In this document: positions 7,653-59,893 of the stretch, one piece after another
Layout of the letters: each line of letters starts with the position of its first letter
Position numbering within the stretch: the stretch's first letter is position 1
Source: Escherichia phage vB_EcoM_G5211
Length of the DNA: 64,000 nucleotides
Sequence record: MK327947.1
Reading direction: 5' to 3' (one strand)
Program-made: the position numbers and the translations under genes
The notes under the pieces: generated by a model
What the model was told of the DNA's origin: nothing
Database searches by the model: none
Seen by the model: only the letters and a program-made list of their open reading frames with translations

Positions 7653-8384
7653 ATGGCTAAAAGATTTCATTATGTTTATGAGATAAAGAATCTTGTAAAC
7701 GGCAAGCTGTATATAGGTAAACATTCTACTAACAATATGCATGATGGATATATGGGGTCTGGTGACCTTCTTCGTGCTGCATTTGAAAAATATGGCATTG
7801 AGAACTTCGAGAAGCGCATATTAAAAATGTTTGATACCGAGCAGGATGCTTACCTATACGAGAAAGAACTTGTCACTGTTGACATTGTAAAAGATCCCAA
7901 TTATTATAATGTAGTTACTGGCGGTCGTTATGACGGAGACCAGGTATACTCAGACTCTGTACGCGCTAAAATGTCTTCTTCTGCCAAAGAGCGCGTAGAA
8001 CGTGATATGAAAACTGGAAAACTAAAAAAAGCAATAGTAGGTATGCGAGAGAGTGTTTCCGGTAGCTCATGGTATAATGACGGTGTTAAATCTATACGAG
8101 TTCGAGATGGAGAAACTCCACCTGACGGATTCGTCAAGGGTAATTTACATGCTGGGTGGGACCATATAGAATGGACGGAGGAACGCAAAGCCGCTAACAG
8201 GGAAATATGTCTAAGACAAGTCCAAAAGGATCGTGAGTCCGGTGCTCTCGCCGAGCGTGTAGCAAGGCTTAACGATTTTCATACTGGCAGTAAGTGGTAT
8301 AACAACGGGGTAGTTAATAAGGTCGTGAAACGCGGTGACACCCCTCCTGATGGTTTTGTTCTTGGAAAACTTGTTAAAAGGTGA
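7653..8384 (+). CDS. segD: GIY-YIG homing endonuclease, Seg-like (segD position)
   Basis: N-terminal HYVYEIKNLVNGKLYIGKHS GIY-YIG motif; GGAG RBS; duplicated GDTPPDGFV segments near the C-terminus. Confidence 0.75.
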   Translation: MAKRFHYVYEIKNLVNGKLYIGKHSTNNMHDGYMGSGDLLRAAFEKYGIENFEKRILKMFDTEQDAYLYEKELVTVDIVKDPNYYNVVTGGRYDGDQVYSDSVRAKMSSSAKERVERDMKTGKLKKAIVGMRESVSGSSWYNDGVKSIRVRDGETPPDGFVKGNLHAGWDHIEWTEERKAANREICLRQVQKDRESGALAERVARLNDFHTGSKWYNNGVVNKVVKRGDTPPDGFVLGKLVKR

Positions 8385-8388
8385 TGTG

Positions 8389-9891
8389 ATGCAAGATATT
8401 CATGTGCATTTTATGAATTATAGTTTTGTTAAAATTGAATGTTCTGATTCAATATCTATGGAATTACGAGACTATTTTTCTTTTGAGATTGAAGGTGCAA
8501 GATTTAATCCTCGTTATCGCTACGGGCAATGGGATGGGCGAATCCGGCTATTTACCTATGAAAACACTCTTCCTATCGGACTGATCAAAACTTTGGGTAT
8601 CTTTGCTAAGAATATGAGCTATTCTGTTTGGATTGATCCCCGTCTTCTGGAAAAGGAGAAAATCACTAAAGAAGATATTGATAGTTGGATCGGTTCGTTG
8701 GCGATATATTCTGGCGCTAATAAGATCACCCCTCATTGGTATCAAAGTGAAGCTGTATTTCAGGGTATACATAATCGTCGTAGAATGTTAGTTTTGCCTA
8801 CTTCTGCTGGTAAAAGTTTGATTGCTTGTTTATTATCTCGATGGTATCTGGAAAACTACGAGGGAAAGGTACTAATCATCGTTCCAACTACTTCTCTTGT
8901 TCTCCAGATGCGTGATGACTTTATTGATTATAGGCTATTCCCTTTTGAGGCTATCCATACAATGATGAGTGGTAGCCAAAAACATCCAGGGGAACGATTG
9001 ATAACTGTTTCAACTTGGCAATCTGCGTGTAAGATGCCTAAAGAGTGGTTCCAGCAATACGGAATGGTTATTGTCGATGAATGTCACAAAGCAACCGCCA
9101 AAAACCTTCAAAATATTGTAAATGATATGACTCATTGCCAATTTAAGATTGGTATGACTGGTTCACCTCGTGACGGTAAGTGTAATGCTTTACAATATGT
9201 TGGATTATTTGGCGATATATCTAGGATCGTAAGTATTGATCGTCTTATGGATGAAGGACAAGTTACAAAACTGAAAATTAACTGTCTATTCCTAAAATAT
9301 ACTGACGATGAATGTACGTCGATTAAGGGGAAAGAATACGCGGAAGAGATCAAATATATAACTTCACACGGTAGACGGAATAAGTTTGTGTGTAATTTGG
9401 CACTAAAACTAGCTAAGAAGGGCGAAAACGTATTCCTGATGTTCCGCAATACTAAGCACGGAAAACTTATGTATGACGCGTTACAGAAGGTACACGACAA
9501 GGTTTATTATATTGACGGTGGAGTTAAGACAGAAGAACGTGATGAATTTAAGAAATTAGCGGAAGGGGAAACAGGGATCATTTGTGTTGCTTCCTATGGT
9601 GTTTTCTCTACTGGTGTTTCAATTAAGAATTTGCACCATGTTATTTTCGGTCATCCCGTGAAGGAATCAACTATCGTTCGTCAGAGTATCGGTCGTGCAT
9701 TGCGTAAACATGGTTCTAAGGATATTGCAACGGTCTGGGATCTTATAGATCATCTGGCGGTGAAGACAAAGAGCAATAATGCTAAGAAACAGTTTAGCCA
9801 CCTTAATTATGCTCTTAAACATGCGCTTGAAAGAATAAAAATTTACAACACCGATCGATTCGAATATGTCACGAAAACAATCGAGATTTAA
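8389..9891 (+). CDS. uvsW: UvsW helicase
   Basis: From the internal ATG (MQDIHVHF..) the sequence parallels T4 UvsW with helicase motifs (LPTSAGKS, DECH); AGGTGA RBS. Confidence 0.9.
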   Translation: MQDIHVHFMNYSFVKIECSDSISMELRDYFSFEIEGARFNPRYRYGQWDGRIRLFTYENTLPIGLIKTLGIFAKNMSYSVWIDPRLLEKEKITKEDIDSWIGSLAIYSGANKITPHWYQSEAVFQGIHNRRRMLVLPTSAGKSLIACLLSRWYLENYEGKVLIIVPTTSLVLQMRDDFIDYRLFPFEAIHTMMSGSQKHPGERLITVSTWQSACKMPKEWFQQYGMVIVDECHKATAKNLQNIVNDMTHCQFKIGMTGSPRDGKCNALQYVGLFGDISRIVSIDRLMDEGQVTKLKINCLFLKYTDDECTSIKGKEYAEEIKYITSHGRRNKFVCNLALKLAKKGENVFLMFRNTKHGKLMYDALQKVHDKVYYIDGGVKTEERDEFKKLAEGETGIICVASYGVFSTGVSIKNLHHVIFGHPVKESTIVRQSIGRALRKHGSKDIATVWDLIDHLAVKTKSNNAKKQFSHLNYALKHALERIKIYNTDRFEYVTKTIEI

Positions 9892-9896
9892 TAAAT

Positions 9897-9920
9897 AGGG
9901 GCTTTAATGCCCCTTTATTC
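9897..9920 (+). terminator. intrinsic terminator after uvsW
   Basis: AGGGGC-tttaat-GCCCCT followed by TTATTCT. Confidence 0.55.
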
Positions 9921-9934
9921 TACGGAGATTAAAA

Positions 9935-10171
9935 ATGATTAGCTTTAAACGTTTTTTGGTTGAGGCCGCTATTGACGGTTTCATGCGTAAGATTTATTCT
10001 TGTAATACTATCGAGGGATTAAATGAACTTGAGGCATATTATGAGAAGCGCAAGAAAGAAACAGAATTGAAACCTGCTGATGATATTTCGATCCGTGATG
10101 CCATCGCTGGACGCCGTAAGCAATTGGAAGCGGACAACGAGCCAGAAGAGGAGCCGGAAGAGGATTTTTAA
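9935..10171 (+). CDS. uvsW.1: UvsW.1-like small acidic protein
   Basis: 78-aa ORF directly after uvsW with GGAG RBS and acidic C-terminus. Confidence 0.7.
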   Translation: MISFKRFLVEAAIDGFMRKIYSCNTIEGLNELEAYYEKRKKETELKPADDISIRDAIAGRRKQLEADNEPEEEPEEDF

Positions 10172-10174
10172 GAT

Positions 10175-10201
10175 ATAAAAAAGCCCCATCAATGATGGGG
10201 C
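10175..10201 (-). terminator. intrinsic terminator on the - strand
   Basis: Hairpin GCCCCATC-aat-GATGGGGC followed by a U-run on the - strand. Confidence 0.55.
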
Positions 10202-10234
10202 AAAATAAACCAATTAAAATCGGTTATCAACAAA

Positions 10235-10411
10235 TTACATTAACAGCATTGTTTGCTCTACGAGTTGTTCTTGTTCTTCGCCGTTCGCATCTTCACTAAT
10301 CGAACGTTCTGTTACTAGCTGTAAGCAGTAGCCAGTGTGAACAACGCCGTTTTCTGTCTGGACGGATAACGCATCCTCGACAGGTTGTTTACAACAAATA
10401 CAGATTTTCAT
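10235..10411 (-). CDS. small Cys-rich protein (58 aa), not in the ORF track
   Basis: ATG preceded by AGGAGG; translation MKICICCKQPVEDALSVQTENGVVHTGYCLQ... Confidence 0.55.
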   Translation of the reverse strand: MKICICCKQPVEDALSVQTENGVVHTGYCLQLVTERSISEDANGEEQEQLVEQTMLLM

Positions 10412-10432
10412 AAAAATTCCTCCTGCATGTAT

Positions 10433-10840
10433 TTAGCGACCAGATTCCAGCATACGCAATTCTATAGCATTCTTGATCGCAAATCCACGAGATTTAACGA
10501 TATCAAGTGCGCGACCAGCGAAATCCATTACCATCTGGTAATATGCAATTTTCGTATCAAGCGGTAAGATCTCGTCGTCTGCTGCCATGACAACTTTCAA
10601 TTCTGATTTCTCATATTCAGCACGACACCAGTCATCACTACGGTTAGTGTAAAAGTCAAGACGATTTTTCATAGCCTTTTTCTTTTTAGCCTCAAGAGCA
10701 ATCGTCTCTCTTTTCGCCTCGCTGTAAATCCTTAACCACTTTGAGTATACTACCGGATTATTCAGCGCCTCCCATTGCAACTTAGTCGCATCGATCTTCA
10801 TGTCAGCTTCTAATTGTTCTTTCAAATCGTTTAGGTCCAT
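10433..10840 (-). CDS. uvsY: UvsY recombination mediator
   Basis: 135 aa; parallels T4 UvsY (..KSRGFAIK.. C-terminal motif). Confidence 0.9.
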   Translation of the reverse strand: MDLNDLKEQLEADMKIDATKLQWEALNNPVVYSKWLRIYSEAKRETIALEAKKKKAMKNRLDFYTNRSDDWCRAEYEKSELKVVMAADDEILPLDTKIAYYQMVMDFAGRALDIVKSRGFAIKNAIELRMLESGR

Positions 10841-47401: not shown

Positions 47402-48349
47402 TTAGAACTCACCAATTTTCTGCAACATTTTAACTAACGCATTTGTTACAAAATAGTTATAAATTTTACCGCGTGGTGCTGGTTTAGATTTTTCCCATGA
47501 CGCCAGAATCTGATTCTGAATATTGTCTGGGATGTAATCGAAATCAATAAGTTCGCGGTTTTCGTCAAAACGTCGTGCTTCTTCCTCTGTCATCAAAGAC
47601 TTTGGATCTTCGGCATCGAAAATTTGCTCTAACCATTTGGTTGCAATTGGTTTAGCTCGTTCCCCTTCCAGTCGAGAGATAATGAAATCACTACGACACT
47701 TGACAGAAGCCACACCGTCTTTTGCGTCACCCTTAACACATTTTACCATAAGGTCTTTGTAAGGGCTACCATATTTGCATTTCTTCCATGCTTTCTGTAC
47801 TGGCGCCCACTGTTTCACATTTTTGTATTTGTGTAACTGTGTGTAGTCACCATCGCCGGAGTTGATTAGCACCTGACGACCTTCTACAGAAAACTTTTTA
47901 GTTAACACAGCGATTATATCATCTGCCTCAACTTTGTCAACCTTAATAACGTGATAAGGCATGTTCTCTTTAAACTCTTCGGTGATCTTATTGATCGCAG
48001 CAAAGATCATCTCCCAATCACGCGGATCTGCGTCTCGTTTTTCCTTACGGTTGCGTTTATAGTAAGGGGCGATATCACGTCGCCAGTAACCTTTGCTTGA
48101 ATCGAATGCAAGTACCGTTATTGGGTATTGCTCTTTGAATTTTGTCATATTATAACGCATGGTGTCAAGAATAAGATGACGGATCATGCCTTCATTAATA
48201 GGATCTTCCGGTTTAAATGTATGAGAGATAGTAGCAATCATAAGCTGTGACATATCAATCAAATGCACACCTTCCGGTAGTTTATCTTCTGGATCATCGA
48301 AGAAATCATTAAGTGTAGCGGTAGTTTTTGTAAACGGGTTATACGTCAT
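47402..48349 (-). CDS. rnh: RNase H / 5'-3' flap exonuclease
   Basis: 315 aa with acidic metal-binding clusters (..VLAFDSS.., ..EADDII.., ..SGDGDY..), as in T4 RNase H. Confidence 0.85.
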   Translation of the reverse strand: MTYNPFTKTTATLNDFFDDPEDKLPEGVHLIDMSQLMIATISHTFKPEDPINEGMIRHLILDTMRYNMTKFKEQYPITVLAFDSSKGYWRRDIAPYYKRNRKEKRDADPRDWEMIFAAINKITEEFKENMPYHVIKVDKVEADDIIAVLTKKFSVEGRQVLINSGDGDYTQLHKYKNVKQWAPVQKAWKKCKYGSPYKDLMVKCVKGDAKDGVASVKCRSDFIISRLEGERAKPIATKWLEQIFDAEDPKSLMTEEEARRFDENRELIDFDYIPDNIQNQILASWEKSKPAPRGKIYNYFVTNALVKMLQKIGEF

Positions 48350-48351
48350 AA

Positions 48352-48537
48352 TTAAGTTCTCTCCACTCTCACAACAACATATTCGCCAAACGAGTTAGAT
48401 ACTTCACGATCATACCCGTATTTCTCCATAACTCGCAGAATTGCATTGTTTAATTCGGCACGGAAATAATTGTAATCCTTATCAGGGATTCTGTCAACTA
48501 CCCATTTTGCACCATCTGACAAATCAAATTTAACCAT
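48352..48537 (-). CDS. small hypothetical protein (61 aa)
   Basis: ATG-initiated ORF directly downstream of rnh. Confidence 0.5.
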   Translation of the reverse strand: MVKFDLSDGAKWVVDRIPDKDYNYFRAELNNAILRVMEKYGYDREVSNSFGEYVVVRVERT

Positions 48538-48575
48538 AATATATCATCCTCTTTTGTTTCTATCAAGCCTTATTT

Positions 48576-48583
48576 TATAAATA
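48576..48583 (+). promoter_or_regulatory. late promoter TATAAATA upstream of gene 34
   Basis: Exact octamer ~30 nt upstream of the gene 34 ATG. Confidence 0.55.
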
Positions 48584-48611
48584 TGAACATACTATAAAAG
48601 GAGACCCAATA

Positions 48612-51600
48612 ATGGCAGATTTTTCTCAACATTTCAAGGCCACATTTGGCTTTGACGCTGGTAATGAAAAGGTCGTCAATGTAGCATTGGCTGATAAGAA
48701 TGTCAACACCGATGCGGTCAACGTTGAATTTTTCAATTACCATAATGGTATTACTCAGTATGACGCAACTCGCGGTTATGATCAATACGGCACTACAATC
48801 TATCAAAACCGTCCGTATTATGCAAAAGAAGATATCACAAAACCAGCAGGTGATTTTGACCCGACTAAATGGCAAGCACTGCGCACGGACCCACGTTGGG
48901 ATTATGTTGCAGCAACTTCCGGCGATACTCCTTTAAAGTCCGGTGATTATATCGCAGCGGACTGTCAGTTTGCAAACTTGACATTCTCAATGCCTACAAA
49001 TCCGGTAGAGGGCGACAATATAACAGTAAAAGATATCGGTGGCAAGTGCGGTGTTAATGAGTTATCGTTCCTTTCGGTTGGTCATGAGTTCTATCATAAT
49101 GGTGTGGTAAACAACCGCAAATGGTACTGTACTACCCCTTATGCAATGAACTACTTCATTTTTGTTCGCAATCGCTGGCACGTTTACCAGACGGGAACGG
49201 AGCCACGCGGGGTATATGCACAACCATCTATCGACCCGATCCAGATGCAAAACGGTGATCAGGTATTCCGCCGTAGTTCTTTGGGTAACATTGTTTTGAT
49301 GCTTCCTAAGTTTGCTAATAACGGTGATATGATCCAGACTACCGATCTTGACGGATTGACTGCAACCAACCATGTTACGGTAAAAGTGCATGAAGGTGCG
49401 CAAGAACAATCGATCGGTACTTTCGGGGTAAAAGAAATTGTTGGTAAGCGTAGCGGTCATGGTGTATTCATATTTGACAAACCGGAAAACTTATGGCGTT
49501 TGTGGGATGGTGATCAGTCTGTTCGCTTGAATCCTATCATTAGTGATACTCGCTTGTCCCCCAATAGCTATGTTGCAGTATTTGGTGATCGTGATGTTAC
49601 CTTGACTTTACCGACCAGCGTCGAGCATGGTGATCGTATCCAAATTTCTATGCAGTATATGCACGGAAACCAGAATTGCCGAATCGTTACCGCAGAAGAG
49701 GATACAAAAATCCTTATGCAGAAAAACATGGTTCAGTTTCCTAAGCGTAGCGAGTACCCGTTCAATGGGACCGATACATGGAAGGAAGTGTCTGAATTGT
49801 CTTTCAACGCTGCAAATGATTATGTACCTTATCTGGAGTTCTCTTATTCAGAAGGTGATGATGGTAAGAAACACTGGTTGGTAGCACATGCTCACCCGAT
49901 CGTAGAACGAGTAGATCCGACTCGTAAAGAGCGTGTTGGTGTTATTGCGCTTGCAACACAGGACGAAACCAACAAAAACCATGAAGATAATCCTAGCGAC
50001 GAAGTTGCAGTAACGCCAAAAATGCTTGCCAATAAGACTGCAAACGAAACGCGTCGAGGTATTGCTAGAATCGCTACTCAAGAAGAAACGCACCAACATA
50101 CAGGGGCAAATTTTCTTGATGATGTGATCGTAACTCCTAAAAAACTAAATGCGTGTGTTGCTTCCGAAGAACATCGAGGCGTGTTGGAGATTGCAACTCA
50201 GGAAGAAACCAACGTAGGTTTAGACGATACACGCGCAATCACCCCTAAGAAATTAGAGGAACGTCGCGCGTCGGAAGACCTTGCTGGTATCGCTGAAATT
50301 GTTCAGATGGGTGGTAGTGCTGCCGCTCGACGTGGCGAAGCTGGTACAGGGGTCTATAACATCAATGACCATGCTAAAATCGTTACACCACAAAACATCA
50401 ACGAAGTTAAGGCGACCGAAACTTCCCGTGGTGTTGGTTATCTGGCAACTGACGCGGAAGTGCAAGGGGCTACAGAAGCAACCCCGCAAGATGCAATGCT
50501 GATCACTACTCGCACGTTAACCAAGCGTACTGCTACCGAATCGCGTACTGGTATCGCTGAAATTGCTACGCAGGAAGAAACTAACTTAGGCCAGAGTGAT
50601 AACCATATCATCACGCCTAAAAAGCTGCATACTCGCCGCGCAACTGAAACTTTACATGGTTTAGCAGAAATTGCAACTCAGCCGGAATTTGACGCAGGTC
50701 GTGACGATGCTCGCATTTCTACTCCATTGAAGATTAAAACCTTCTTTGAGAAAGCACAGCGTTTGAGAGTAGATCCGAATCAGGGGCTTAACCTTACGGG
50801 TGATTTATGGCAAGGTATCACGATCAGCGGTCTTGATGCAACCGAAGATACAAAAGGTGTCGCGAAAGTTGCTACTAGTCAGCTTACCGATGTGGGAGAA
50901 GATGACGCCACGATCATTACTCCTAAAAAGCTGCAAGGCAAAAAGGCCACCGAAGATAAAGAAGGTATTATCAGAGTTGGTACTCAAGCCGAAACCGTCG
51001 CTGGTGCACTGGACAATGTAGCAATTTCTCCGAAGAATTTCAAATATGTTGTCCAGACAGAGGATACATGGAAAGCAACCGAAGCGCGTCGTGGATTCTT
51101 GAAAGTTGCTACTCAGGAAAACTGTTTTGTTGGCGATAATCTGCAAGGTTCTACTCAAGAGCTTGATGAATATCAGCATGATGGGATTGCGGTAACTCCG
51201 AAAGGATTAAACTACGCACTTGCTAATTTCTTACCTAAAATGGCAACCGCTCAGAATAGTTTGAAATTGGGTAACGTAGAGGCCGCTAAATGGGCGCGCA
51301 GAGACATTGACCAGACCATTGAGAGCAATTACACGTTTAATAAAAACGTTAACGTGAAGGGCGATTTAGAGTGCTTAAAATCCGGTTCCTTTGAAACTCT
51401 GTTTGTGACTAAGAACTCGACTGACGATCCGAGTAATGGTCATCTGGTATTGGGTGAGCGTGGAGTTGACGGTCACACCGGAATTACTCTGCATGGCACA
51501 ACCTTGTCAGAAGGTATGGAAAACTCATGGTCTATTATCGTTGGTGGCACTGGAACGGCGCAAGCAGTTAATAGTGATGCTATCGCTTTCTGTAAGATTG

Positions 51601-52352
51601 ACGATTCTGGATCTGTTGAACATTATGCCTTTGCTATGGAACGTGACGGCGATGCGTTAGCATATAGAGACTTCATAGCAGGTCGTAACCTGTATGCGAA
51701 GCAAGGCGGTTTATATATTGTAGACCACTCCAATCCGGCAATGACTCGCTCTCCAGACGGTATGTTGAATATCGGTCACGGTGGAAGTGTTAACATCAAA
51801 GCAGGTTATCAGAATCTGACTACAGAGATCGCTGGGCAGAAATATCAGATCGTACACGCAGGAAACGCTGACGAAGTTCTTAACCGTCAGTTTGTTAAGA
51901 ATGCTGGCGATACAATGGTCGGTAAGCTGATTATGGATAATGCGCCTATTGTTTCTGTTAAGCATGAAGCTAGCGCGGCAACCGCTCCGGCAATCGGTAA
52001 CATCGGTTTCTGGAACATGCGAGTAACTACCCAAAACATCAAAGAAACCTATCCAGAGAAGAAAAACGGCACATTGATGCAATGGGGTACTGATGAAAAC
52101 GGCCTTACCCAAATCTGGTCACCTGATGGTACTCATAAGCATTATATCCGTTCCGGTACAGATGGTCAATGGACCGCATGGGGCGAAATTTACACCAAAC
52201 AGAACAAGCCTACCGCTCAGGAAATCGGGGCAGTGGTTGCCGAAGGTGGTTTGATGAACTCTATGACGGTTCGTGACTGGATCAAGGTTGGTAATGTTAA
52301 AATTATTGCCAATAATCTGACTCGTACCGTAGATTTTATCTGGGAAGACTAA
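48612..52352 (+). CDS. 34: long tail fibre proximal subunit gp34
   Basis: 1246 aa; N-terminus and the repeated ..GIAxIATQEET..ITPKKL.. units parallel T4 gp34. Confidence 0.9.
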   Translation: MADFSQHFKATFGFDAGNEKVVNVALADKNVNTDAVNVEFFNYHNGITQYDATRGYDQYGTTIYQNRPYYAKEDITKPAGDFDPTKWQALRTDPRWDYVAATSGDTPLKSGDYIAADCQFANLTFSMPTNPVEGDNITVKDIGGKCGVNELSFLSVGHEFYHNGVVNNRKWYCTTPYAMNYFIFVRNRWHVYQTGTEPRGVYAQPSIDPIQMQNGDQVFRRSSLGNIVLMLPKFANNGDMIQTTDLDGLTATNHVTVKVHEGAQEQSIGTFGVKEIVGKRSGHGVFIFDKPENLWRLWDGDQSVRLNPIISDTRLSPNSYVAVFGDRDVTLTLPTSVEHGDRIQISMQYMHGNQNCRIVTAEEDTKILMQKNMVQFPKRSEYPFNGTDTWKEVSELSFNAANDYVPYLEFSYSEGDDGKKHWLVAHAHPIVERVDPTRKERVGVIALATQDETNKNHEDNPSDEVAVTPKMLANKTANETRRGIARIATQEETHQHTGANFLDDVIVTPKKLNACVASEEHRGVLEIATQEETNVGLDDTRAITPKKLEERRASEDLAGIAEIVQMGGSAAARRGEAGTGVYNINDHAKIVTPQNINEVKATETSRGVGYLATDAEVQGATEATPQDAMLITTRTLTKRTATESRTGIAEIATQEETNLGQSDNHIITPKKLHTRRATETLHGLAEIATQPEFDAGRDDARISTPLKIKTFFEKAQRLRVDPNQGLNLTGDLWQGITISGLDATEDTKGVAKVATSQLTDVGEDDATIITPKKLQGKKATEDKEGIIRVGTQAETVAGALDNVAISPKNFKYVVQTEDTWKATEARRGFLKVATQENCFVGDNLQGSTQELDEYQHDGIAVTPKGLNYALANFLPKMATAQNSLKLGNVEAAKWARRDIDQTIESNYTFNKNVNVKGDLECLKSGSFETLFVTKNSTDDPSNGHLVLGERGVDGHTGITLHGTTLSEGMENSWSIIVGGTGTAQAVNSDAIAFCKIDDSGSVEHYAFAMERDGDALAYRDFIAGRNLYAKQGGLYIVDHSNPAMTRSPDGMLNIGHGGSVNIKAGYQNLTTEIAGQKYQIVHAGNADEVLNRQFVKNAGDTMVGKLIMDNAPIVSVKHEASAATAPAIGNIGFWNMRVTTQNIKETYPEKKNGTLMQWGTDENGLTQIWSPDGTHKHYIRSGTDGQWTAWGEIYTKQNKPTAQEIGAVVAEGGLMNSMTVRDWIKVGNVKIIANNLTRTVDFIWED

Positions 52353-52359
52353 TTAAAAG

Positions 52360-52377
52360 GGGGGCGAAAGCCCCCTA
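52360..52377 (-). terminator. antisense-oriented hairpin terminator between genes 34 and 35
   Basis: GGGGGC-uuuc-GCCCCCC followed by UUUUAAUU on the - strand; reverse complement of the element at 41553. Confidence 0.4.
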
Positions 52378-52387
52378 TGGGGTTATT

Positions 52388-53527
52388 ATGACACAAGAAA
52401 TAGAATTACGCAATACTGGAATTAAGTTTGCGCATTTCGACGAAGACTCCGCGACATTTACAAGCATTTCAGAAAACAACTCTGTGATGTATAAGCTGGA
52501 AGTGCGCGGATCTAATGCGGATTCTTCCAAACCAGCAAGGATTAGATTTAATGGAGTGGAGATCGTCGGGACTGGCTATGAGACTGGCCTAAACTTTAAA
52601 GTTTTTACTCCAACTGGACAATTGCACGAAGAAAAGGTATTCTATGGTCGTGGTGCTGTATTGGCAATGCGTGATTATCTTTATTTGCTGAAAGGCGACT
52701 ATATCATTGCGATGGCAACGCATGGAGAATTGTTTGCAGATCCGATAAGTGATGATATATTTTCTAAGCTGGGATCTGTATCATTCCCGAATCACATTTT
52801 GTTACAGCAAATGCCTCGTGTGTCATATGCTGCAATTTATTCTACTAAAATGGGTAAAATTGTGTGCGAAGGGATGCAAGCAACGCACGGAGAAGGTCAA
52901 GATTCGTCTATACAAATTGAGAAGGTTTATGATACTATAGATGATCTTGCGGTCACAGGAACACCACAACGATTTTTAGATTATCCGGTTGAGTATGTTA
53001 GCGAAGATGCCGAACATTTCGAGCTAATACAATGGCCTCATGATGAGATCAGCGCACCACTTGAATATTTTAACATAAAGGCAGGTGACAAACTATCAAT
53101 ATCCTTTGAATTGTTCCGTGATAGTGCCGCAGCCGCAGCCAACGTAACAGCGCGTTTCTATCACAACTACTTCACTGATGGACAATATCAAACTGGCGTT
53201 CGTTATAATGCCAGCCAGAAAGATCAATGGGAAAAGTTTGAAGCCGTCTATACCGTACCGGAAGGAGTTGATAGTGTAGTAACTGGTTGTATCAGATATC
53301 CAACCAACTCCAATGAAGGTGTTGTTAAGGTTAGAAACATACTAATAACGCCGATCAGTGGAGTCGTCAAAACTACTGGTCCTACTTCATTTGGTGTTAA
53401 TGGTGTTAGAACAACTCATATTCAGGATAACGGTGATTTTACTAACCCTGTAATGAGTCTTCTTAAACTGCCTAGAGATAATAAACACATCACATCCAAC
53501 AACTTTAAAGAGTTCGATGTTGATTAA
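52388..53527 (+). CDS. 35: long tail fibre hinge connector gp35
   Basis: 379 aa at the T4 gene 35 position. Confidence 0.85.
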   Translation: MTQEIELRNTGIKFAHFDEDSATFTSISENNSVMYKLEVRGSNADSSKPARIRFNGVEIVGTGYETGLNFKVFTPTGQLHEEKVFYGRGAVLAMRDYLYLLKGDYIIAMATHGELFADPISDDIFSKLGSVSFPNHILLQQMPRVSYAAIYSTKMGKIVCEGMQATHGEGQDSSIQIEKVYDTIDDLAVTGTPQRFLDYPVEYVSEDAEHFELIQWPHDEISAPLEYFNIKAGDKLSISFELFRDSAAAAANVTARFYHNYFTDGQYQTGVRYNASQKDQWEKFEAVYTVPEGVDSVVTGCIRYPTNSNEGVVKVRNILITPISGVVKTTGPTSFGVNGVRTTHIQDNGDFTNPVMSLLKLPRDNKHITSNNFKEFDVD

Positions 53528-53538
53528 CATTTTTAACA

Positions 53539-53570
53539 AGCCGATCCATGTGGTCGGCTTTATTTTTATA
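53539..53570 (+). terminator. intrinsic terminator after gene 35
   Basis: AGCCGA-uccaugugg-UCGGCU followed by a U-rich run. Confidence 0.6.
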
Positions 53571-53688
53571 CAGTTGGTTAAAACATAACCAAAACGAAGA
53601 AAGATCTTTAGAATAATAGAAAATTTGTTTCGGCTAAAAAATAGTCAGTGCCTACGGCACGTCGCGAAGCGATATTTTGTTAACATTC

Positions 53689-53696
53689 TATAAATA
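53689..53696 (+). promoter_or_regulatory. late promoter TATAAATA upstream of gene 36
   Basis: Exact octamer ~35 nt upstream of the gene 36 ATG. Confidence 0.55.
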
Positions 53697-53729
53697 CTCG
53701 GAACTATAACTAATTTTTGAGGTTACTTT

Positions 53730-55220
53730 ATGGCAGATTTGAAACATGGATCTACTGTAGGCGGATCTCCCATTTGGACGCAAGGAAACTTGACGATCCA
53801 GCCAGCGGGTGATCAGCTTTTCTACAAAGGTCATAAAATCTATACCGCTTTTGATAAACCTTCGGCTGCCGATTTTGATGCTGTTAGTGCATCCGAAGGG
53901 GGTACATTTCAGAAACTGGTCCATTTTGAGGAAGGTTTAAGCGTAGGTAGCGCATCCGGTGGAGAAACCAAAAAGAACGGGATCTTTAAAGGCAATAGTG
54001 ATGCGGCTAACTTTGACGGTGTAAGTTGGGGTTTGCATTCGTGGAAATCTATTGGTTTTGTTAATGCTCGTGATGATGTTATCATGGCTTATATTGACAC
54101 TACCACAGGTGATTTTAAAACTAAAGGGACCATCGAAGGGACAACCATTAAAGACACAGGTCAACGCGTCTATAGCCCTGTTAATAAACCAACGAATAAT
54201 GATTTAGATTTGGTGTCTCGTCGCGGTGATACCCTCACAGGAACATATAATTTAAACACTGTCACTGTTAAACTATCGGTTGATTCGAAATTAATTGCAA
54301 GGGAACGTGATTTAATTAATTTTGATGCGACTAAGATCTATTATGGTAACGTTCTTGATACGTTGGTCTTCCGAAGTAAAGATGAGCCTACCATTTTTGT
54401 TAATGGCAGAGAAGGTCGTTTTTATCACACCAACAATAAACCAACTAAAGCCGATGTTGGGCTAGGCAATGTCACCAATGATGCACAGGTTAAACGTGCT
54501 GGTGATATTATGGAAGGTAACTTGCAAGCGCCTAGAATGTTGGCGACAAACGATCCGGCTGGTCCTAATGAATTGGTTCGTTTGAGCTACTTTGAGAAAA
54601 AATCAATGGTAGCAAATCCAACCATCATAGGAAACGTTGATTGGAACACTCTTATTAATCGCGGTATCTATCGTGTGGAAAATGCTGGGTCAGGTACTAA
54701 TAAACCGTCTGATAGCTATTATAACGGCGTTTTGATGGTATATCGCCCAGAAGATGCGGTCGGTACTCGTCGAATTGTTCAGGTATACTATCCTGAATCT
54801 ATTGATCATCCGATGTGCTGGCGTTCTTGTTCTAATGAATCATGGACTGCATGGAACTATGTAGATCACCGTAAATTGGCTGATATTCGCTATGTTAACG
54901 TCACTGGCGATACCATGACAGGACCGTTAACTGTTCCGGCGGCAAATGGCGTTCATACCGCAGAAGCTAACTATAATGGTGATAATTGCTACGCTGGACT
55001 TAATAGCTTAAATGGCACAGCAATGATTCATCGTGTTAGTGATATTAAAGCGCACGAGAAACTAGGCATCACACATGATTCTAAAATTATTTTCGTTAAA
55101 TCACGCAACAATACTCAGGACACCGATACATTTGAATTATACCACGAAGGACACAAACCAACTCCTGATGATGTTGGCGCTGTTCCGCTTAATGCGGTAA
55201 TTGATTTTGGTACTTTCTAA
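53730..55220 (+). CDS. 36: long tail fibre subunit gp36 (enlarged, 496 aa)
   Basis: N-terminus MADLKHGSTVGGSPIWTQGN.. parallels T4 gp36, which is only ~221 aa. Confidence 0.8.
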   Translation: MADLKHGSTVGGSPIWTQGNLTIQPAGDQLFYKGHKIYTAFDKPSAADFDAVSASEGGTFQKLVHFEEGLSVGSASGGETKKNGIFKGNSDAANFDGVSWGLHSWKSIGFVNARDDVIMAYIDTTTGDFKTKGTIEGTTIKDTGQRVYSPVNKPTNNDLDLVSRRGDTLTGTYNLNTVTVKLSVDSKLIARERDLINFDATKIYYGNVLDTLVFRSKDEPTIFVNGREGRFYHTNNKPTKADVGLGNVTNDAQVKRAGDIMEGNLQAPRMLATNDPAGPNELVRLSYFEKKSMVANPTIIGNVDWNTLINRGIYRVENAGSGTNKPSDSYYNGVLMVYRPEDAVGTRRIVQVYYPESIDHPMCWRSCSNESWTAWNYVDHRKLADIRYVNVTGDTMTGPLTVPAANGVHTAEANYNGDNCYAGLNSLNGTAMIHRVSDIKAHEKLGITHDSKIIFVKSRNNTQDTDTFELYHEGHKPTPDDVGAVPLNAVIDFGTF

Positions 55221-55224
55221 TTCT

Positions 55225-55250
55225 AGCGGGGATTATCCCCGCTTTTCTAA
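55225..55250 (+). terminator. hairpin plus T-run after gene 36
   Basis: AGCGGGG-auua-UCCCCGCU followed by UUUUC. Confidence 0.5.
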
Positions 55251-55287
55251 ATAATATTATTCTAACAACCGTTAAGGATTTTATAAA

Positions 55288-58068
55288 ATGGCAGATTTAC
55301 AGAGAATCCAATTTAAAAGAACAAGTACGGCAGGTCGCAAGCCGGATGCGAATATTCTAACTCCGGGTGAACTTGCTATTAACCTAGCGGATCGAGAACT
55401 ATATACAAAAGATGACAGCAATAATGTAATTACTTTGGGACACTTTCGCGGTGAGTTGCCATCTGATGCAAATTTAGATAATTATGGACCTACTGGTAAA
55501 TTTACTGGCGTTTGGTCTAAATCAACTTCAACAAATGCGCAGCCAGCAAATAAATTCCCAGAAGAGAATGCTGTAGGTGTATTAGAAGTATTTGTGGCTG
55601 GTCAATTTGCTGGCACTCAGCGTTATACTGTTCGGTCTGGTAACGTTTATATCCGTTCTTTGTCTGCGAAATGGAATGGCGTAGATGGTCCATGGGGTCC
55701 GTGGCGCAATATTCAAACTGGCACACGTCCACTATCAACTACACTAGACTTGAATACTTTAGGTGATGCTTCTCATTTTGGGTTATGGCGAAATAGTTCA
55801 AGTTCCATTGCATCATTTTCTCGAAATTACCCAGAAGAAGGTGGTCTCGCGCAAGGTCTTTTAGAAATTTATGAAGGTGGTAACTATTCTCGCACGCAAC
55901 GTTATACTACCCGAATGGGTGTTGTATATGTTCGTTGTCTTGCTGGTGCATGGGATCCAGAAGCTCCGAATTGGGGACCGTGGCAACAAGTAGGTATGGT
56001 TACTCCCAACACATTCTATGACGGGGATCTTAATAATTTTCGTTCTCCTGGCTTATATAATATTTTAGGCACTGATGCCGTTATTAACCGTCCAGTTGCA
56101 GAAGGTGTTCCGGTTGAGATGACCGGATTGCTTGAGGTTAAACAGCGTGCTTCCGGTGGCGCTATTTTCCAACGTTTCACTACCGCAGGAACGGGATCTA
56201 CTACCCGTGGTCGTGTTTTTGAACGTGCAATGACAAATAATATCTGGGGAAATTGGCATGAAGTATATACATCTTATTCTCTGCCAATTACTTTGGGTAT
56301 GGGTGGTATTAAAACTCAATTAGCGGAGCTAGATTGGCAAACATTTGATTTTGTTCCTGGTAGTATGTTTAGCGTTCCTTTGAACAAAATAAAGAACATG
56401 CCAGCAAATATGGATTGGGGTGCGATTGACGGAAACTTGGTTATGTTTTCTGTCGGTCCTAGCGAACACACTAGCACAGGGCGTACTGTTCAGGTTTGGC
56501 GTGGTACTGTATCCCAGACAAACTACCGTTATTTTGTCGTTCGTGTGTTCGGTAATTCTGGAAATAGAACTTGTACAGTTCGCCGTGTTGTTCTTGAAGA
56601 CGGATCACATACTTGGACTGCTAAACAAGATTTTAATGGTGCTGTCAACTTTGGTGGTTCGACAACTTTTAAGTCCACTACAACTTTTAACACAGAAGTT
56701 AAATTCCGTTCATCCAATGCATTTAAAATGTATGGCGGTAATTTTGGCACAATTTTCCGTAATGATGGTGAAAGTCTTTATATTCTTTCCACCGACGAAA
56801 ATGATCAAGATGGAAACTTTAATACAAATAGACCTTTCCGCTATCAATTAAAAACTGGCGATGTTACTTTGGGTGGCACTAGCGGTGCTAACGCTTTAGT
56901 ATTAAAAGGCGGTTCTCTTGCTGCTACCTTTAGCGGTGATGTTAATTTAAGTAAAGGTACGCTGACGTTTGAAGCGGGTGGTAAGCAATCACGCGATTAT
57001 TTCCGGTTTAATCATTGGGGTGATAGCAATAACGCTCGTGATAACATTATTCAGTTAGAAGATAGTAAAGGCGCTCATTTTTCCACTGAACGTACTTTAG
57101 CGACTGGTGCAATTAAAACTAAATTCTTTGGTGAAGTTGAATCAACTGGTCGATTGACTATTAAACGTCCGGGTGGTGCTATTGTATTATCGACTACAGC
57201 CAGCAACGCTTTGCATATTCGCGGTGACGTAGACGGGAATGGTAACTGGTATATTGGTAAAGGTGGTGCTGATAATTCGCTAGCATTTTATAGCTATGCT
57301 ACTCAGGCGGCAGTACATATAACAAACAATGGTGAGATTGCGTTAAACCCGCAAAATACCTTAATGGTTAACGTTAACCGCGATCGTATGTATATCAATG
57401 GTGCAAGTTGGGTTGCCAGACAACCAGGTGATTGGGGCAACCAATGGCGAGTAGAAGCTCCATTATTCGTTGATCATGGTTATGTTGGTCAAGATAGTTA
57501 TTATCCTATTCTTAAAGCAAGAAGCGTTATAACCAATCAAGGATATAGCACCGCTGTTGACTTTGGTATGCGTCGTATTCCATCACAGTGGGGGCAAGCA
57601 ATCATTCGTGTCGGATCCACGGAGGCTTCTCCTGATGCTGGACACCCACAAGCTGTGTTTGAATTCCATCATGATGGGTTCTTTTATACACCAGGAAATG
57701 GTAGCTTTAGCGATGTGTATATTCGTTCTGACTCCCGTCTTAAGATTAATAAAGAAGAGTTAGAAAACGGAGCACTTGAAAAAGTATGCCGTCTGAAAGT
57801 TTATACTTACGATAAAGTTAAGTCTATTAAAGATCGTAGTGTGATTAAACGTGAAGCTGGTATTATTGCTCAGGATCTTGAAAAAGAATTGCCGGAAGCT
57901 GTATCTAAAGTTGAAGTTGATGGATCTGATGTTCTGACAATTTCTAACTCGGCAGTGAATGCTCTTTTAATTAAGGCTATTCAGGAAATGAGTGAAGAAA
58001 TTAAAGAATTGAAAACTCCTTTCTTTACTAAAATTGCTCGCAAAATTAGTAAATATTTTAAATTCTAA
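55288..58068 (+). CDS. 37: long tail fibre distal subunit gp37 with C-terminal intramolecular-chaperone (S74-like) domain
   Basis: N-terminus MADLQRIQFKRTSTAGRKPD.. parallels T4/T2 gp37; C-terminal SDSRLKINKEELENGALEKV..GIIAQDLEKELPEAV matches the auto-cleaving chaperone signature. Confidence 0.85.
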   Translation: MADLQRIQFKRTSTAGRKPDANILTPGELAINLADRELYTKDDSNNVITLGHFRGELPSDANLDNYGPTGKFTGVWSKSTSTNAQPANKFPEENAVGVLEVFVAGQFAGTQRYTVRSGNVYIRSLSAKWNGVDGPWGPWRNIQTGTRPLSTTLDLNTLGDASHFGLWRNSSSSIASFSRNYPEEGGLAQGLLEIYEGGNYSRTQRYTTRMGVVYVRCLAGAWDPEAPNWGPWQQVGMVTPNTFYDGDLNNFRSPGLYNILGTDAVINRPVAEGVPVEMTGLLEVKQRASGGAIFQRFTTAGTGSTTRGRVFERAMTNNIWGNWHEVYTSYSLPITLGMGGIKTQLAELDWQTFDFVPGSMFSVPLNKIKNMPANMDWGAIDGNLVMFSVGPSEHTSTGRTVQVWRGTVSQTNYRYFVVRVFGNSGNRTCTVRRVVLEDGSHTWTAKQDFNGAVNFGGSTTFKSTTTFNTEVKFRSSNAFKMYGGNFGTIFRNDGESLYILSTDENDQDGNFNTNRPFRYQLKTGDVTLGGTSGANALVLKGGSLAATFSGDVNLSKGTLTFEAGGKQSRDYFRFNHWGDSNNARDNIIQLEDSKGAHFSTERTLATGAIKTKFFGEVESTGRLTIKRPGGAIVLSTTASNALHIRGDVDGNGNWYIGKGGADNSLAFYSYATQAAVHITNNGEIALNPQNTLMVNVNRDRMYINGASWVARQPGDWGNQWRVEAPLFVDHGYVGQDSYYPILKARSVITNQGYSTAVDFGMRRIPSQWGQAIIRVGSTEASPDAGHPQAVFEFHHDGFFYTPGNGSFSDVYIRSDSRLKINKEELENGALEKVCRLKVYTYDKVKSIKDRSVIKREAGIIAQDLEKELPEAVSKVEVDGSDVLTISNSAVNALLIKAIQEMSEEIKELKTPFFTKIARKISKYFKF

Positions 58069-58104
58069 CAACAAGGGGGCGTTGCCCCCTTTGGAGTATA
58101 AATT

Positions 58105-58218
58105 ATGGCAGTAGTTGGTGTTCCTGGTTGGATTGGAAGTTCAGCCGCAAATGAAACAGGACAACGATGGATGAGTCAAGCGGCTGGTCAATTAAGATTG
58201 GTGTTCCTTGCTGGATGA
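58105..58218 (+). pseudogene. 38: gp38 adhesin N-terminal segment (37 codons) in a different frame from the gp38 body
   Basis: GGAG RBS then [32 protein letters not shown] (conserved gp38 N-terminus), running into a TGA at 58216; the body continues in the -1 frame. Confidence 0.6.
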
Positions 58219-58904
58219 GTCAATTTGCAGGTCGCTCGCGAGAAATTATTCATACTGTAGGAGCAAACCACAATTTTAATGGTCAGTGGTTCCGTGATAG
58301 ATGCTTTGAAGCTGGCGGTGCACCTATTGTATTCAATATTGTTGGTGATATCGTTTCTTATTCTAAAGATGTACCGCTTTTCTTTATGTATGGTGACACT
58401 CCTAACGAATACGTTGTCCTTAATATTCATGGTGGTGTCCATATGTGGGGTCGAGGTGGTAATGGTGGATACACTCACTCAGGTGGAGATGGTAACGGTA
58501 CACAAGGCGGTCATGTTATTCAAAATGATATCGGTGGACGGCTTCGTATTTGGAACTACGGTGTTATAGCTGCTGGCGGTGGTGGCGGTGGTGGTATTGC
58601 ATATCGTCCACACTCAGGGGCAAACTGGCAAGATATCGGTGGCGGTGGCGGTCGACCTTTCGGTGGTGCTGGCGGTGGCGGTTATTCCGGTGGTGCTGCT
58701 TCTTATGAAGGTCCGGGTGGTGGTTACAACTATGGTAACGCACACTCCGGCGCGGGTGGTAATGCTGGCGCTGCTGGTCAGAATGCATGGTCTGATGGCG
58801 GTAAAGTTCTTAAAGTTGGTGTTGGTGGTGCTTCTGGTCATGCCGTGTTTGGATCTTCTCCAACTTGGGGCGCTGTAGGGACAATTTATGGACCTTACAT
58901 TTAA
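58167..58904 (+). CDS. 38: gp38 receptor-recognising adhesin, body with glycine-rich motifs (T2-type)
   Basis: ..[41 protein letters not shown].. plus poly-Gly motifs; no RBS before this in-frame ATG. Confidence 0.8.
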
Positions 58905-58963
58905 CCGTTAAAAAAGAATTAAGGAAAAATCCCAGGGAAGGGAACTACTAAGGAGAAACGGCT

Positions 58964-59203
58964 ATGGTCTATAATATCGTCATTGGTGCTTTGTCTAATT
59001 TCGGAATGAAATTATTGTCAAAGTTAATTAGTGAAAAGATGCTCACTAAAATTTTCTTCTATTGCGCTCGTCGTCTTGCGGCTTATACCAATACGCCAAT
59101 TGATGATCGTTTTGTGGAAGAACTTTATAAGGAGTTTAATAAAGATCAGTCAGAAGATAGTAACGAGCAAGATAAACCTAGTGATAGTCAACTACCTAAA
59201 TAA
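58964..59203 (+). CDS. small protein with hydrophobic N-terminus (79 aa) between genes 38 and t
   Basis: AAGGAGAA RBS; N-terminal MVYNIVIGALSNFGMKLLSKLI; acidic C-terminus. Confidence 0.55.
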   Translation: MVYNIVIGALSNFGMKLLSKLISEKMLTKIFFYCARRLAAYTNTPIDDRFVEELYKEFNKDQSEDSNEQDKPSDSQLPK

Positions 59204-59236
59204 GAGTACACTGTCATAGTTATCTTAGGGCATTAT

Positions 59237-59893
59237 ATGCAAGTTTCTGAAAAAGGGAAAGACTTTGCTATCTCAAATGTCCTGCGCGCTATTTTCACAA
59301 CTAAAAGCACGGAGTTGCTCGTACTTCGTGTTTTTGCTGCCGTCGTGTTGTCCATATTAGCATTTGTCGTTTATAGTAAAAACGAGTTATTTGCGCTTTA
59401 TAAAGAGACTCGTTATGAGACTTATGCTCACATTCTCCAGGTAGAGAAAGACCGCAATTTTGATAATGCAGCACAGGAGCAGTTACAGATAGTTCATGTG
59501 TCGGCTGATGCCGATTTTTCTGCTGTTTTTAGTTTTCGTCCGAAAAACCTAAACTATTTTGTTGATTTGGTGGCATATGAAGGAAAGTTACCGCATACAA
59601 TCGATGAAAAAAATTTAGGCGGATTCCCTATCAATAAAACGAGTGAAGAATATCGTAGGCATCTTTTAGGTAAATCATATTTTACCGATAAAGATTTCCA
59701 GTATATTCCATCAAGAGAAAAGAAATTAGAGAATATCGATATAGGGTTTATGTATTCTTGCCCTATATTCAATCTCGATAATGTCTATTCTGGTAGTATC
59801 GCCATTGCATGGAAGAATAAACCGGATATTGACATTGAGAATTTAGATACTCTTTGCAATCAATCTGCCAGAATCCTCGGAAGGATTAGATAA
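59237..59893 (+). CDS. t: holin T
   Basis: 218 aa; ..LEQLQIVHVSADADFSAVFSFRPKNLNYFVDLVAYEGKLP.. parallels T4 holin; N-terminal TM; C-terminal ..ARILGR.. Confidence 0.9.
   Translation: MQVSEKGKDFAISNVLRAIFTTKSTELLVLRVFAAVVLSILAFVVYSKNELFALYKETRYETYAHILQVEKDRNFDNAAQEQLQIVHVSADADFSAVFSFRPKNLNYFVDLVAYEGKLPHTIDEKNLGGFPINKTSEEYRRHLLGKSYFTDKDFQYIPSREKKLENIDIGFMYSCPIFNLDNVYSGSIAIAWKNKPDIDIENLDTLCNQSARILGRIR

Follow-up and report, generated by a model that had tools for sequence, protein, structure and literature searches.

An RB49-like distal long-tail-fibre module in Escherichia phage vB_EcoM_G5211 with a T6-type gp37 and a predicted gp38-capped tip

Results

Gene content of the locus

The long tail fibres of T-even phages are represented in Escherichia phage vB_EcoM_G5211 by a block of genes that we analysed within a 64,000-nucleotide (nt) stretch of its genome (record MK327947.1; hereafter the window, to which all positions refer). 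The initial annotation of positions 53730–58068 recognised genes 36 and 37 of a long-tail-fibre module, encoding proteins of 496 and 926 amino acids (aa), and this identification proved exact according to the list of open reading frames (ORFs), PHROG and Pfam. The two genes belong to a + strand block in the order 34-35-36-37-38-dc5-t, which is the same in the related phages vB_EcoM_G2494 (hereafter G2494) and kvi, and which contains ORFs of 1246, 379, 496, 926, 245 (glycine-rich), 79 and 218 aa; gp34, gp35, gp36, gp37, gp38 and the t holin were identified through PHROGs and Pfam. In megablast searches, G2494 (Krischvirus, RB49 group; MK327935, equivalent genes G2494_00256-00258) matched positions 53730–58068 over 100% of their length with 97.9% nt identity, while further Krischvirus genomes matched them at 93–94%. 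The region is thus a normal RB49-type (Krischvirus) distal long-tail-fibre gene set, already present in GenBank and in the literature.

A sliding comparison over 200 nt resolved this similarity along the DNA. Positions 48000–55400 are Krischvirus backbone, shared with RB49, kvi and G2494. Between 55400 and 58300, a counterpart in RB49 and kvi exists only for a part of the gp37 shaft (around 57000) and for the 3' end (from about 57200 onward), and the DNA resembles the Tequatrovirus phages T6 and KarlGJung in patches of 73–100% nt identity. Finally, positions 54800–59400 are 100% identical to G2494, with the exception of one indel.

gp36 has the long form usual for the genus

Gene 36 (53730..55220, + strand) encodes the small distal-fibre subunit, whose size of 496 aa had been noted as an enlargement. 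With about 275 residues more than the 221-aa gp36 of T4, the protein is indeed over twice as long, but its length is nothing peculiar to this phage. It matches PHROG 16472 collinearly over positions 1–496 of 496 (E = 0) and is identical from end to end at 93.5% to gp36 of RB49 (NP_891821), at 94% to that of G2494 and at 97% to that of kvi, all of them 496 aa long, while more distant metagenomic orthologues of 492–508 aa are 50–65% identical. Judged by these alignments, the 496-aa gp36 is the Krischvirus norm. Its 5' two-thirds are slightly nearer to kvi (97%) than to G2494, in line with a patchwork within the genus.

Compared with T4 gp36, residues 1–171 are 39% identical to residues 1–184, residues 242–294 align with residues 161–215, and the terminal residues IDFGTF correspond to QDFGYY; relative to T4, insertions are found at about aa 172–250 and aa 295–490. 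The T4 gp36 family profile (PF03903) covers aa 62–153 at 26.5 bits, close to the cut-off of 26 and with partial profile coverage, and RB49 gp36 stays under this cut-off with 21.4 bits. Nevertheless, the BLASTP match to T4 gp36 1–184 (E = 1e-29) makes the homology of the N-terminal third clear. A search of PDB sequences with gp36 returned only a WxL protein (E = 0.33) and no T4 gp36 up to E = 1, and neither gp36 nor gp37 matched any NCBIfam entry.

The first insertion (aa 172–250; 54243..54479), which ends in the connector motif FYHTNNKPTKADVG, is homologous to the C-terminal module of the protein (aa 385–496; 54882..55217), which ends in the gp37-joining tail LYHEGHKPTPDDVGAVPLNAVIDFGTF. In profile comparison with hhalign, residues 166–250 (54225–54479) and 385–496 are related with a probability of 96.6% (E = 6.9e-10), which reveals an internal duplication in gp36. 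A knob domain (aa 299–382; 54624..54875), located with a hidden Markov model (HMM) pooled from the knob units described below, lies between the two copies. Four copies of the connector, of the form (I/V/F/L)Y-x3-5-KP(S/T)-x2-D and then GD-x-(M/L)-x-G, bound the modules of gp36 (aa 37, 147, 231 and 470), and both duplicated modules end in its YH-x2-NKPT-x2-DVG form. Besides, fibre proteins of Escherichia coli prophages match gp36 at about aa 130–265.

The first ~50 residues of gp36 (53730–53880) also resemble proteins of another name, since they are 55–57% identical to the N-termini of 730–820-aa 'gp37' proteins. These are found in T4-like phages such as RB16 and those of Cronobacter, Citrobacter, Enterobacter and Klebsiella, and the same N-terminus is seen in 'gp37' of RB16-, Karam- and Slopek-like phages. 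Such similarity suggests that, in these lineages, the distal half-fibre may start with a gp36-type head placed on a gp37-like protein.

gp37 carries a T6-type body on a Krischvirus N-terminus

Gene 37 (55288..58068, + strand; PHROG and Pfam) encodes a 926-aa protein that aligns along its whole length with gp37 of G2494 (100% identity), KarlGJung (989 aa, QXV82066; 82%) and T6 (994 aa, BBF63668; 77%). The sole structural difference is the absence here of about 63 residues that follow aa 51 in the T6 and KarlGJung proteins. The initial annotation had proposed a T2-like architecture. This assignment had to be abandoned, as similarity to the T2 protein (1341 aa) is confined to the first ~72 and the last ~125 residues, whereas the T6 protein contains all three knobs of the present gp37. 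The gp37 of T4 matches only the first 55 residues.

The N-terminal gp36-joining domain (aa 1–51; 55288..55440) is of the Krischvirus type, its first ~50 residues being 68% identical to residues 1–50 of RB49 and kvi gp37 and 58% identical to T4. At the DNA level, T6 and KarlGJung become similar only from about position 55463, near codon 59. These comparisons reveal the true mosaic event, in which a T6/Ox2-type cassette made of the gene 37 body and gene 38 is joined to a Krischvirus gene 36 and gene 37 N-terminus. What the two genera share is the gene 37 body, the chaperone part at its end and the 5' end of gene 38. Such a pattern of fibre recombination has long been described for T-even phages (PMC3157838). 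The junction itself falls at positions 55441–55462 (aa 52–59), with Krischvirus-like DNA upstream and Tequatrovirus-like DNA downstream. The residues that are missing at this place from both the window and G2494, and that are found in T6 and KarlGJung, form a fibre-repeat-like stretch (...GNSSTATKLQTPRKINGISFDGSKDITL...).

The body of gp37 opens with three knob domains, which are treated in the next section, followed by a fourth globular segment (aa 333–445; 56284..56622). Although it is all-beta in the AlphaFold2 (AF2) model and is retained together with knobs 1–3 in T6 and KarlGJung, this segment is not a knob by sequence; its candidacy as a fourth copy was rejected since hhalign gave E > 0.02 against all units. 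It is also ~60% identical in E. coli prophage fibres. Downstream, residues 449–545 (56632..56922) are homologous to the C-terminal trimerisation region of T4 gp34, as seen from a match to PF21446 at aa 462–518 (E = 1.5e-12) and to the gp34 structures 5nxh/4uxe/5nxf in PDB (E = 6e-9). The distal shaft (aa 546–813; 56923..57726), with a weak match to Pfam gp37_trimer at aa 636–682, then leads to the strand DVYIR (aa 809–813), which is the predicted docking site of gp38.

The three knobs and the fourth domain taken together (aa 51–451; 55438–56640) have counterparts with ~60% identity, at 99% coverage, in the tail-fibre proteins of many E. coli prophages. Such sharing of a four-domain block indicates a probable exchange between virulent T-even phages and the fibres of temperate phages.

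Knob domains occur in gp37, gp36 and gp34

Three repeated units in gp37 and one in gp36, each of about 55 aa, had been proposed from the sequence. Their number stands but their size does not: the units measure ~85–90 aa, and the 55-aa stretch is their conserved C-terminal half. Knob 1 of gp37 (aa 56–146; 55453..55725) was delimited with the pooled HMM, knob 2 (aa 148–236; 55729..55995) is a tandem duplicate of knob 1 according to shuffled-sequence tests and hhalign, and knob 3 (aa 241–330; 56008..56277) is a divergent copy recognised by hhalign and the HMM. While self-BLASTP of the fibre proteins left these internal repeats unreported, they were disclosed by Smith-Waterman alignment with shuffles and by hhalign. 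Units 1 and 2 (aa 55–146 and 147–240) reach a Smith-Waterman score of 166, whereas shuffled sequences average 27 (z = 29.7) and none of 300 shuffles attains the observed value. Unit 3 is only marginally similar to the others in pairwise comparison (z = 4.2), and the gp36 unit is undetectable against the gp37 units by the same procedure (z ≤ 1.3). Profile comparisons with hhalign relate unit 1 to unit 2 (E = 1.7e-27), unit 1 to unit 3 (E = 4.9e-6) and the gp36 unit (aa 285–384) to unit 3 (E = 1.8e-9 over 75 columns, with 21% identity).

The pooled HMM, trained on the gp36 and gp37 units, also locates the same three knobs in gp37 of T6 and KarlGJung. Outside of its training set, it identifies a divergent knob-type unit in gp34 (aa 1128–1196; 51993–52199; independent E-value 2.7e-6), as well as in RB49 gp34 (~3e-6). 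By contrast, it finds nothing in gp34, gp36 and gp37 of T4 and T2, nor in gp37 of RB49 and kvi. The gp34 unit is followed by the connector motif IYTKQNKPTAQEI, which is shared with gp36, so that each of the three trimeric fibre proteins contains a module made of knob and connector.

The knob units span 84–91 aa and contain 4–6 strands each in AF2 monomer models. The pyocin-type knob has been defined as a domain of ~85 residues with a five- to six-stranded antiparallel beta-sheet, often in tandem (Buth 2018; PMC6116203), and the units resemble in structure Knob1 and Knob2 of the R1/R2 pyocin fibres. Further neighbours of their fold are 5efv, 5m9f and T4 gp34 (5nxh), and the first two as well as T4 gp34 have likewise been listed as neighbours of the pyocin Knob1/Knob2 (Buth 2018; PMC6116203). 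In the same vein, the E. coli prophage homologues with ~60% identity carry the NCBI name 'pyocin knob domain-containing'. The knob-like label given to these units is correct, and the domain family is already known.

The presence of related knobs in neighbouring proteins had been taken to imply an exchange of domains between gp36 and gp37. A recent transfer of a knob in either direction, by which this phage would have gained a new and enlarged gp36, could call upon the homology between the gp36 unit and knob 3 (hhalign E = 1.8e-9) and upon the ~275 aa by which gp36 exceeds its T4 counterpart. However, the two knobs are only 21% identical, a level at which we rejected a recent exchange, and their pairwise score is no better than that of shuffled sequences. 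Moreover, the 496-aa gp36 is 93–97% conserved in RB49, kvi and G2494, with remoter orthologues of 492–508 aa at 50–65%; RB49 gp36 possesses the knob although RB49 gp37 is devoid of HMM-detectable ones; and the knob fold, or family, is also present in the gp34 C-terminus, pyocin fibres and prophage fibres. The initial annotation had named an end-to-end alignment with T2 orthologues, free of extra or moved domains, as the observation that would speak against its proposal. Such alignments were obtained for gp36 with RB49 and for gp37 with T6 instead of T2, which is the same outcome in spirit. A recent exchange is therefore extremely improbable. The gp36 knob has long been part of Krischvirus gp36, and the knobs of gp36, gp37 and gp34 reflect old shared ancestry or modularity.

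gp37 ends in a chaperone domain predicted to cleave itself

An intramolecular chaperone (IMC) of the S74 type had been recognised at the C-terminus of gp37, and this was borne out. The Peptidase_S74 domain (113 residues, aa 814–926; 57727..58068 including the stop codon) is matched by PF13884 at aa 814–872 over positions 1–57 of the 58 positions of the profile (E = 1.3e-11; 45 bits for a cut-off of 22), and by the fragment of S16 gp37 in PDB 6f45 at aa 808–911. Chaperones of this family form the extreme C-terminus of trimeric fibres or spikes and begin with the scissile serine, which makes a Ser-Lys dyad with the lysine at the fifth residue after it, as in endosialidase and T5 pb1. The first position of the profile falls on S814 and the corresponding motif in gp37 reads DVYIR(809–813)^S814DSRLK, with the lysine at K819, after which the chaperone extends to the C-terminus (aa 926). 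The DVYIR strand is identical in T6, KarlGJung, kvi, RB49 and the fPS phages, and the DNA encoding the chaperone is 94–98% identical across Krischvirus and Tequatrovirus relatives. By Pfam, the S74 domain is present in gp37 of T2, T6, RB49, kvi and the window, whereas T4 gp37 has none and contains Collar and fibre-repeat domains, as the initial annotation had anticipated for T4. The same distinction between S74-bearing gp37 proteins and T4 is found in the literature (Trojet 2011, PMC3157838; Salem 2021, PMC7917993; Efimov 2022, PMC9569957).

The position of the cleavage site can be predicted by analogy. Cleavage of gp37 from Yersinia phage fPS-65, whose gene 37 (Gp246) is 86% identical in nt to the present one, was predicted between DVYIR and SDGRLKI from an alignment to DLNVS^SDRRIKK, the site mapped in Salmonella phage S16, and the DVYIR strands were described as making up the docking surface of gp38 (Salem 2021; PMC7917993). 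Cleavage followed by capping with gp38 was reported for gp37 of T2 and T6 (Trojet 2011; PMC3157838), for S16 and the fPS phages (Salem 2021; PMC7917993) and for RB49 (Efimov 2022; PMC9569957). On these grounds, the predicted autocleavage site in gp37 of vB_EcoM_G5211 is R813^S814.

gp38 is an Ox2-type adhesin with a split reading frame

The adhesin gp38, expected as the partner of such a gp37, is indeed encoded directly downstream. Gene 38 (58105..58904, + strand) starts 37 nt past the gene 37 stop codon, likewise in G2494, kvi and KarlGJung, and specifies a glycine-rich adhesin (PF05268, E = 1e-65; PHROG 2056) that is ~92% identical to gp38 of phage Ox2. Since the receptor of Ox2 is OmpA, OmpA is also the predicted receptor of vB_EcoM_G5211.

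A deletion of 1 nt at position 58199, seen in comparison with G2494, kvi and KarlGJung, splits the reading frame: residues 1–32 are encoded in 58105–58200 and the remainder lies in the 245-aa ORF 58167–58904, so that tblastn matches fall in two frames. If the frameshift were genuine, the phage would produce no normally attached gp38, or an N-terminally truncated one from the internal ATG at 58167, and adsorption would be altered or lost. This reading takes its weight from the split frame itself and from the fact that the deletion is the sole difference from G2494 in 4.6 kb. However, the lost base belongs to a run of Gs (GGG to GG), where sequencing or assembly errors typically arise, and on either side the DNA matches that of a viable isolate at 100%. 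Furthermore, the lost N-terminus holds conserved tryptophan prongs needed for docking on gp37 (PMC7917993), so that adsorption would probably not survive a real mutation. We thus consider a genuine frameshift unlikely, and the deletion is probably a sequencing error. No second copy of gp38 was found in the 64-kb window, nor in the G2494 record, where the gene occurs in one place only. The frameshift needs to be re-checked before host range is deduced from this sequence.

Flanking genes and transcription signals

Upstream of the distal genes, gene 34 (48612..52352, + strand) encodes the proximal half-fibre (1246 aa; full-length match to PHROG 972) and is of the Krischvirus type, with 80–99% nt identity to RB49, kvi and G2494. 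It is followed by gene 35 (52388..53527, + strand) for the hinge or 'knee-cap' protein (379 aa; PHROG 1154, E = 2e-125). The T4-type late-promoter consensus TATAAATA is present upstream of gene 34 (48576–48583, + strand; consensus match) and, as an exact copy, 34 nt 5' of the gene 36 ATG (53689..53696, + strand). Because this consensus is not enriched across the window (7 found versus 5.8 expected), the promoter calls for genes 34 and 36 rest on position only.

Terminator-like structures on the + strand separate several of the genes. A hairpin with a T-run is located 3' of gene 35 (~53541–53566), with an equivalent annotated terminator in G2494, and the hairpin GCGGGGATTATCCCCGC followed by TTTT lies between genes 36 and 37 (55226..55246), where a terminator is again annotated in G2494. 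Between genes 37 and 38, the hairpin GGGGGCGTTGCCCCC followed by TTT (58075..58092) is conserved in G2494, kvi and KarlGJung. Finally, a 79-aa Dc5-like ORF (58964–59203) is found between gene 38 and t. In RB49, a dc5-like ORF stands directly 3' of gene 37, in the place of gene 38, whereas the gene 38 cassette sits here between gene 37 and dc5.

Discussion

With a probability of roughly 90%, the region encodes an RB49-like distal half-fibre, composed of a long gp36, a mosaic gp37 of the T6 type, an autocleaved chaperone and a tip capped by gp38. The analyses reported above show the identities of its genes, the limits of the domains, the homology of the repeats, the class of fold and the breakpoints of the mosaic, and its mechanism, namely cleavage, capping by gp38 and the receptor, is inferred by homology with S16, T2, T6 and RB49. 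In this half-fibre, gp36 consists of a T4-gp36-like core into which two modules are inserted, one of them a duplicated beta module and the other a single knob of the pyocin type. The gp37 chain comprises, in order, the joining domain, three knobs, the fourth globular domain, a trimerisation segment like that of gp34, the beta-helical shaft and the S74 chaperone. The latter would nucleate the folding of the gp37 trimer and, once the trimer is folded, cut itself off at R813^S814. The DVYIR tip exposed in this way may take one copy of the Ox2-type gp38, which would then attach to its receptor in the outer membrane, with OmpA as the predicted candidate. The knobs would act as structural beads of the fibre that aid trimer folding.

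Several points weigh against this model. Gene 38 is frameshifted, and an intact gp38 frame including the N-terminal domain for attachment to gp37 is not seen in the record. If the frameshift is true, the adhesin would be deprived of the N-terminal part that docks on gp37, and the model could not hold for this isolate. In addition, the knob HMM was built from the phage's own units, which leaves the gp34 match as the only independent one, and the AF2 monomer model of gp36 is poor outside of the knob (mean predicted local distance difference test score of 41), which is the only usable part.

Besides their structural part, the knobs may be considered as sites of recognition. The pyocin knobs are antiparallel sheets of ~83 residues with a probable role in the folding of the trimer and a possible one in sugar binding, and knob-like domains are known from saccharide-binding fibres and tailspikes, where the K1F beta-prism binds sialic acid (Buth 2018; PMC6116203). 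According to the literature, RB49-like phages are able to use O antigens as primary receptors. The four-domain block has passed as one piece between these phages and E. coli prophage fibres, where it is ~60% identical. These elements could suggest that the knob arrays of gp36 and gp37 serve as secondary lectin-like receptor sites for surface polysaccharide, beyond being structural beads. However, the O-antigen specificity of RB49-like phages was genetically mapped to gp38 and not to gp36 or gp37. In addition, the knobs are 77–82% conserved in aa despite differing specificities of gp38, such as that of T6 (Tsx) versus the Ox2-type protein found here, and the present analysis identified no binding-site residues in them. 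A lectin-like function thus appears improbable, and sugar binding by the knobs is speculative. Even less probable is a more elaborate version, in which the five knobs of the gp34 C-terminus, gp36 and gp37 would form a lateral array of weak carbohydrate sites that engage O antigen or lipopolysaccharide before gp38 meets its protein receptor. If true, the exchange of the knob block with E. coli prophage fibres would reflect selection on carbohydrate binding. We therefore retain the model of a gp38-capped half-fibre with knobs as structural beads.

Knobs, a chaperone that cleaves itself and capping by gp38 have all been published, and a near-identical genome is in GenBank; the locus has little importance beyond its correct annotation. 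It nonetheless illustrates how host-recognition modules of T-even phages are assembled, with a genus-specific gene 36 and gene 37 N-terminus combined with a cassette of gene 37 body and gene 38 that is shared with Tequatrovirus. It also yields, through the Ox2-type gp38, a prediction of OmpA as receptor in a group of phages relevant to phage therapy.

Among known systems, G2494 is the closest, with a gp37 that is 100% identical in aa, a gp36 that is 94% identical and a gene 38 whose DNA differs by the single base deleted here. RB49 shares the collinear gp34-gp35-gp36, the same knob and duplicated module in gp36, and a gp37 that ends in DVYIR^SD and the S74 domain. It differs by an unrelated gp37 body over aa ~55–450 and by the absence of gene 38 beside gene 37, its gene 38 having been placed at a distant locus (Trojet 2011; PMC3157838). 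In the RB49 sequence that we compared, gp37 (7718–10657) has the cleavage motif and the S74 chaperone, yet no gene 38 follows. The gp37 proteins of T6, KarlGJung and fPS-65 display the same succession of three knobs, fourth domain, gp34-like segment, shaft, DVYIR^SD and IMC, with gene 38 downstream, but the partner gp36 of the T6 type has 216 aa instead of 496. In S16 (PDB 6F45) and T2, the S74 chaperone is autocleaved and a gp38 with a polyglycine-rich specificity domain docks, as predicted here; their gp37 proteins share only the N-terminal ~70 and the C-terminal ~125 residues with the present one, their shafts are unrelated, and the cleavage context of S16 is DLNVS^SD versus DVYIR^SD.

More remote likenesses concern Knob1/Knob2 of the R1/R2 pyocins (6CL5/6CL6/6CU2) and the P-domains of T4 gp34 (5NXF/5NXH), which belong to different proteins and hosts. 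Compared with the pyocin fibres, the fibre described here has three tandem knobs in gp37, one in gp36 and one in the gp34 C-terminus, and is devoid of a lectin-like foot, receptor binding being left to gp38. Finally, T4 has homologous gp36 and gp37 N-termini (39% and 58%), the same gene order and late promoters at the same places; but its gp36 is without a knob, the Collar/needle tip of its gp37 itself binds the receptor, and its gp38 is an unrelated chaperone.

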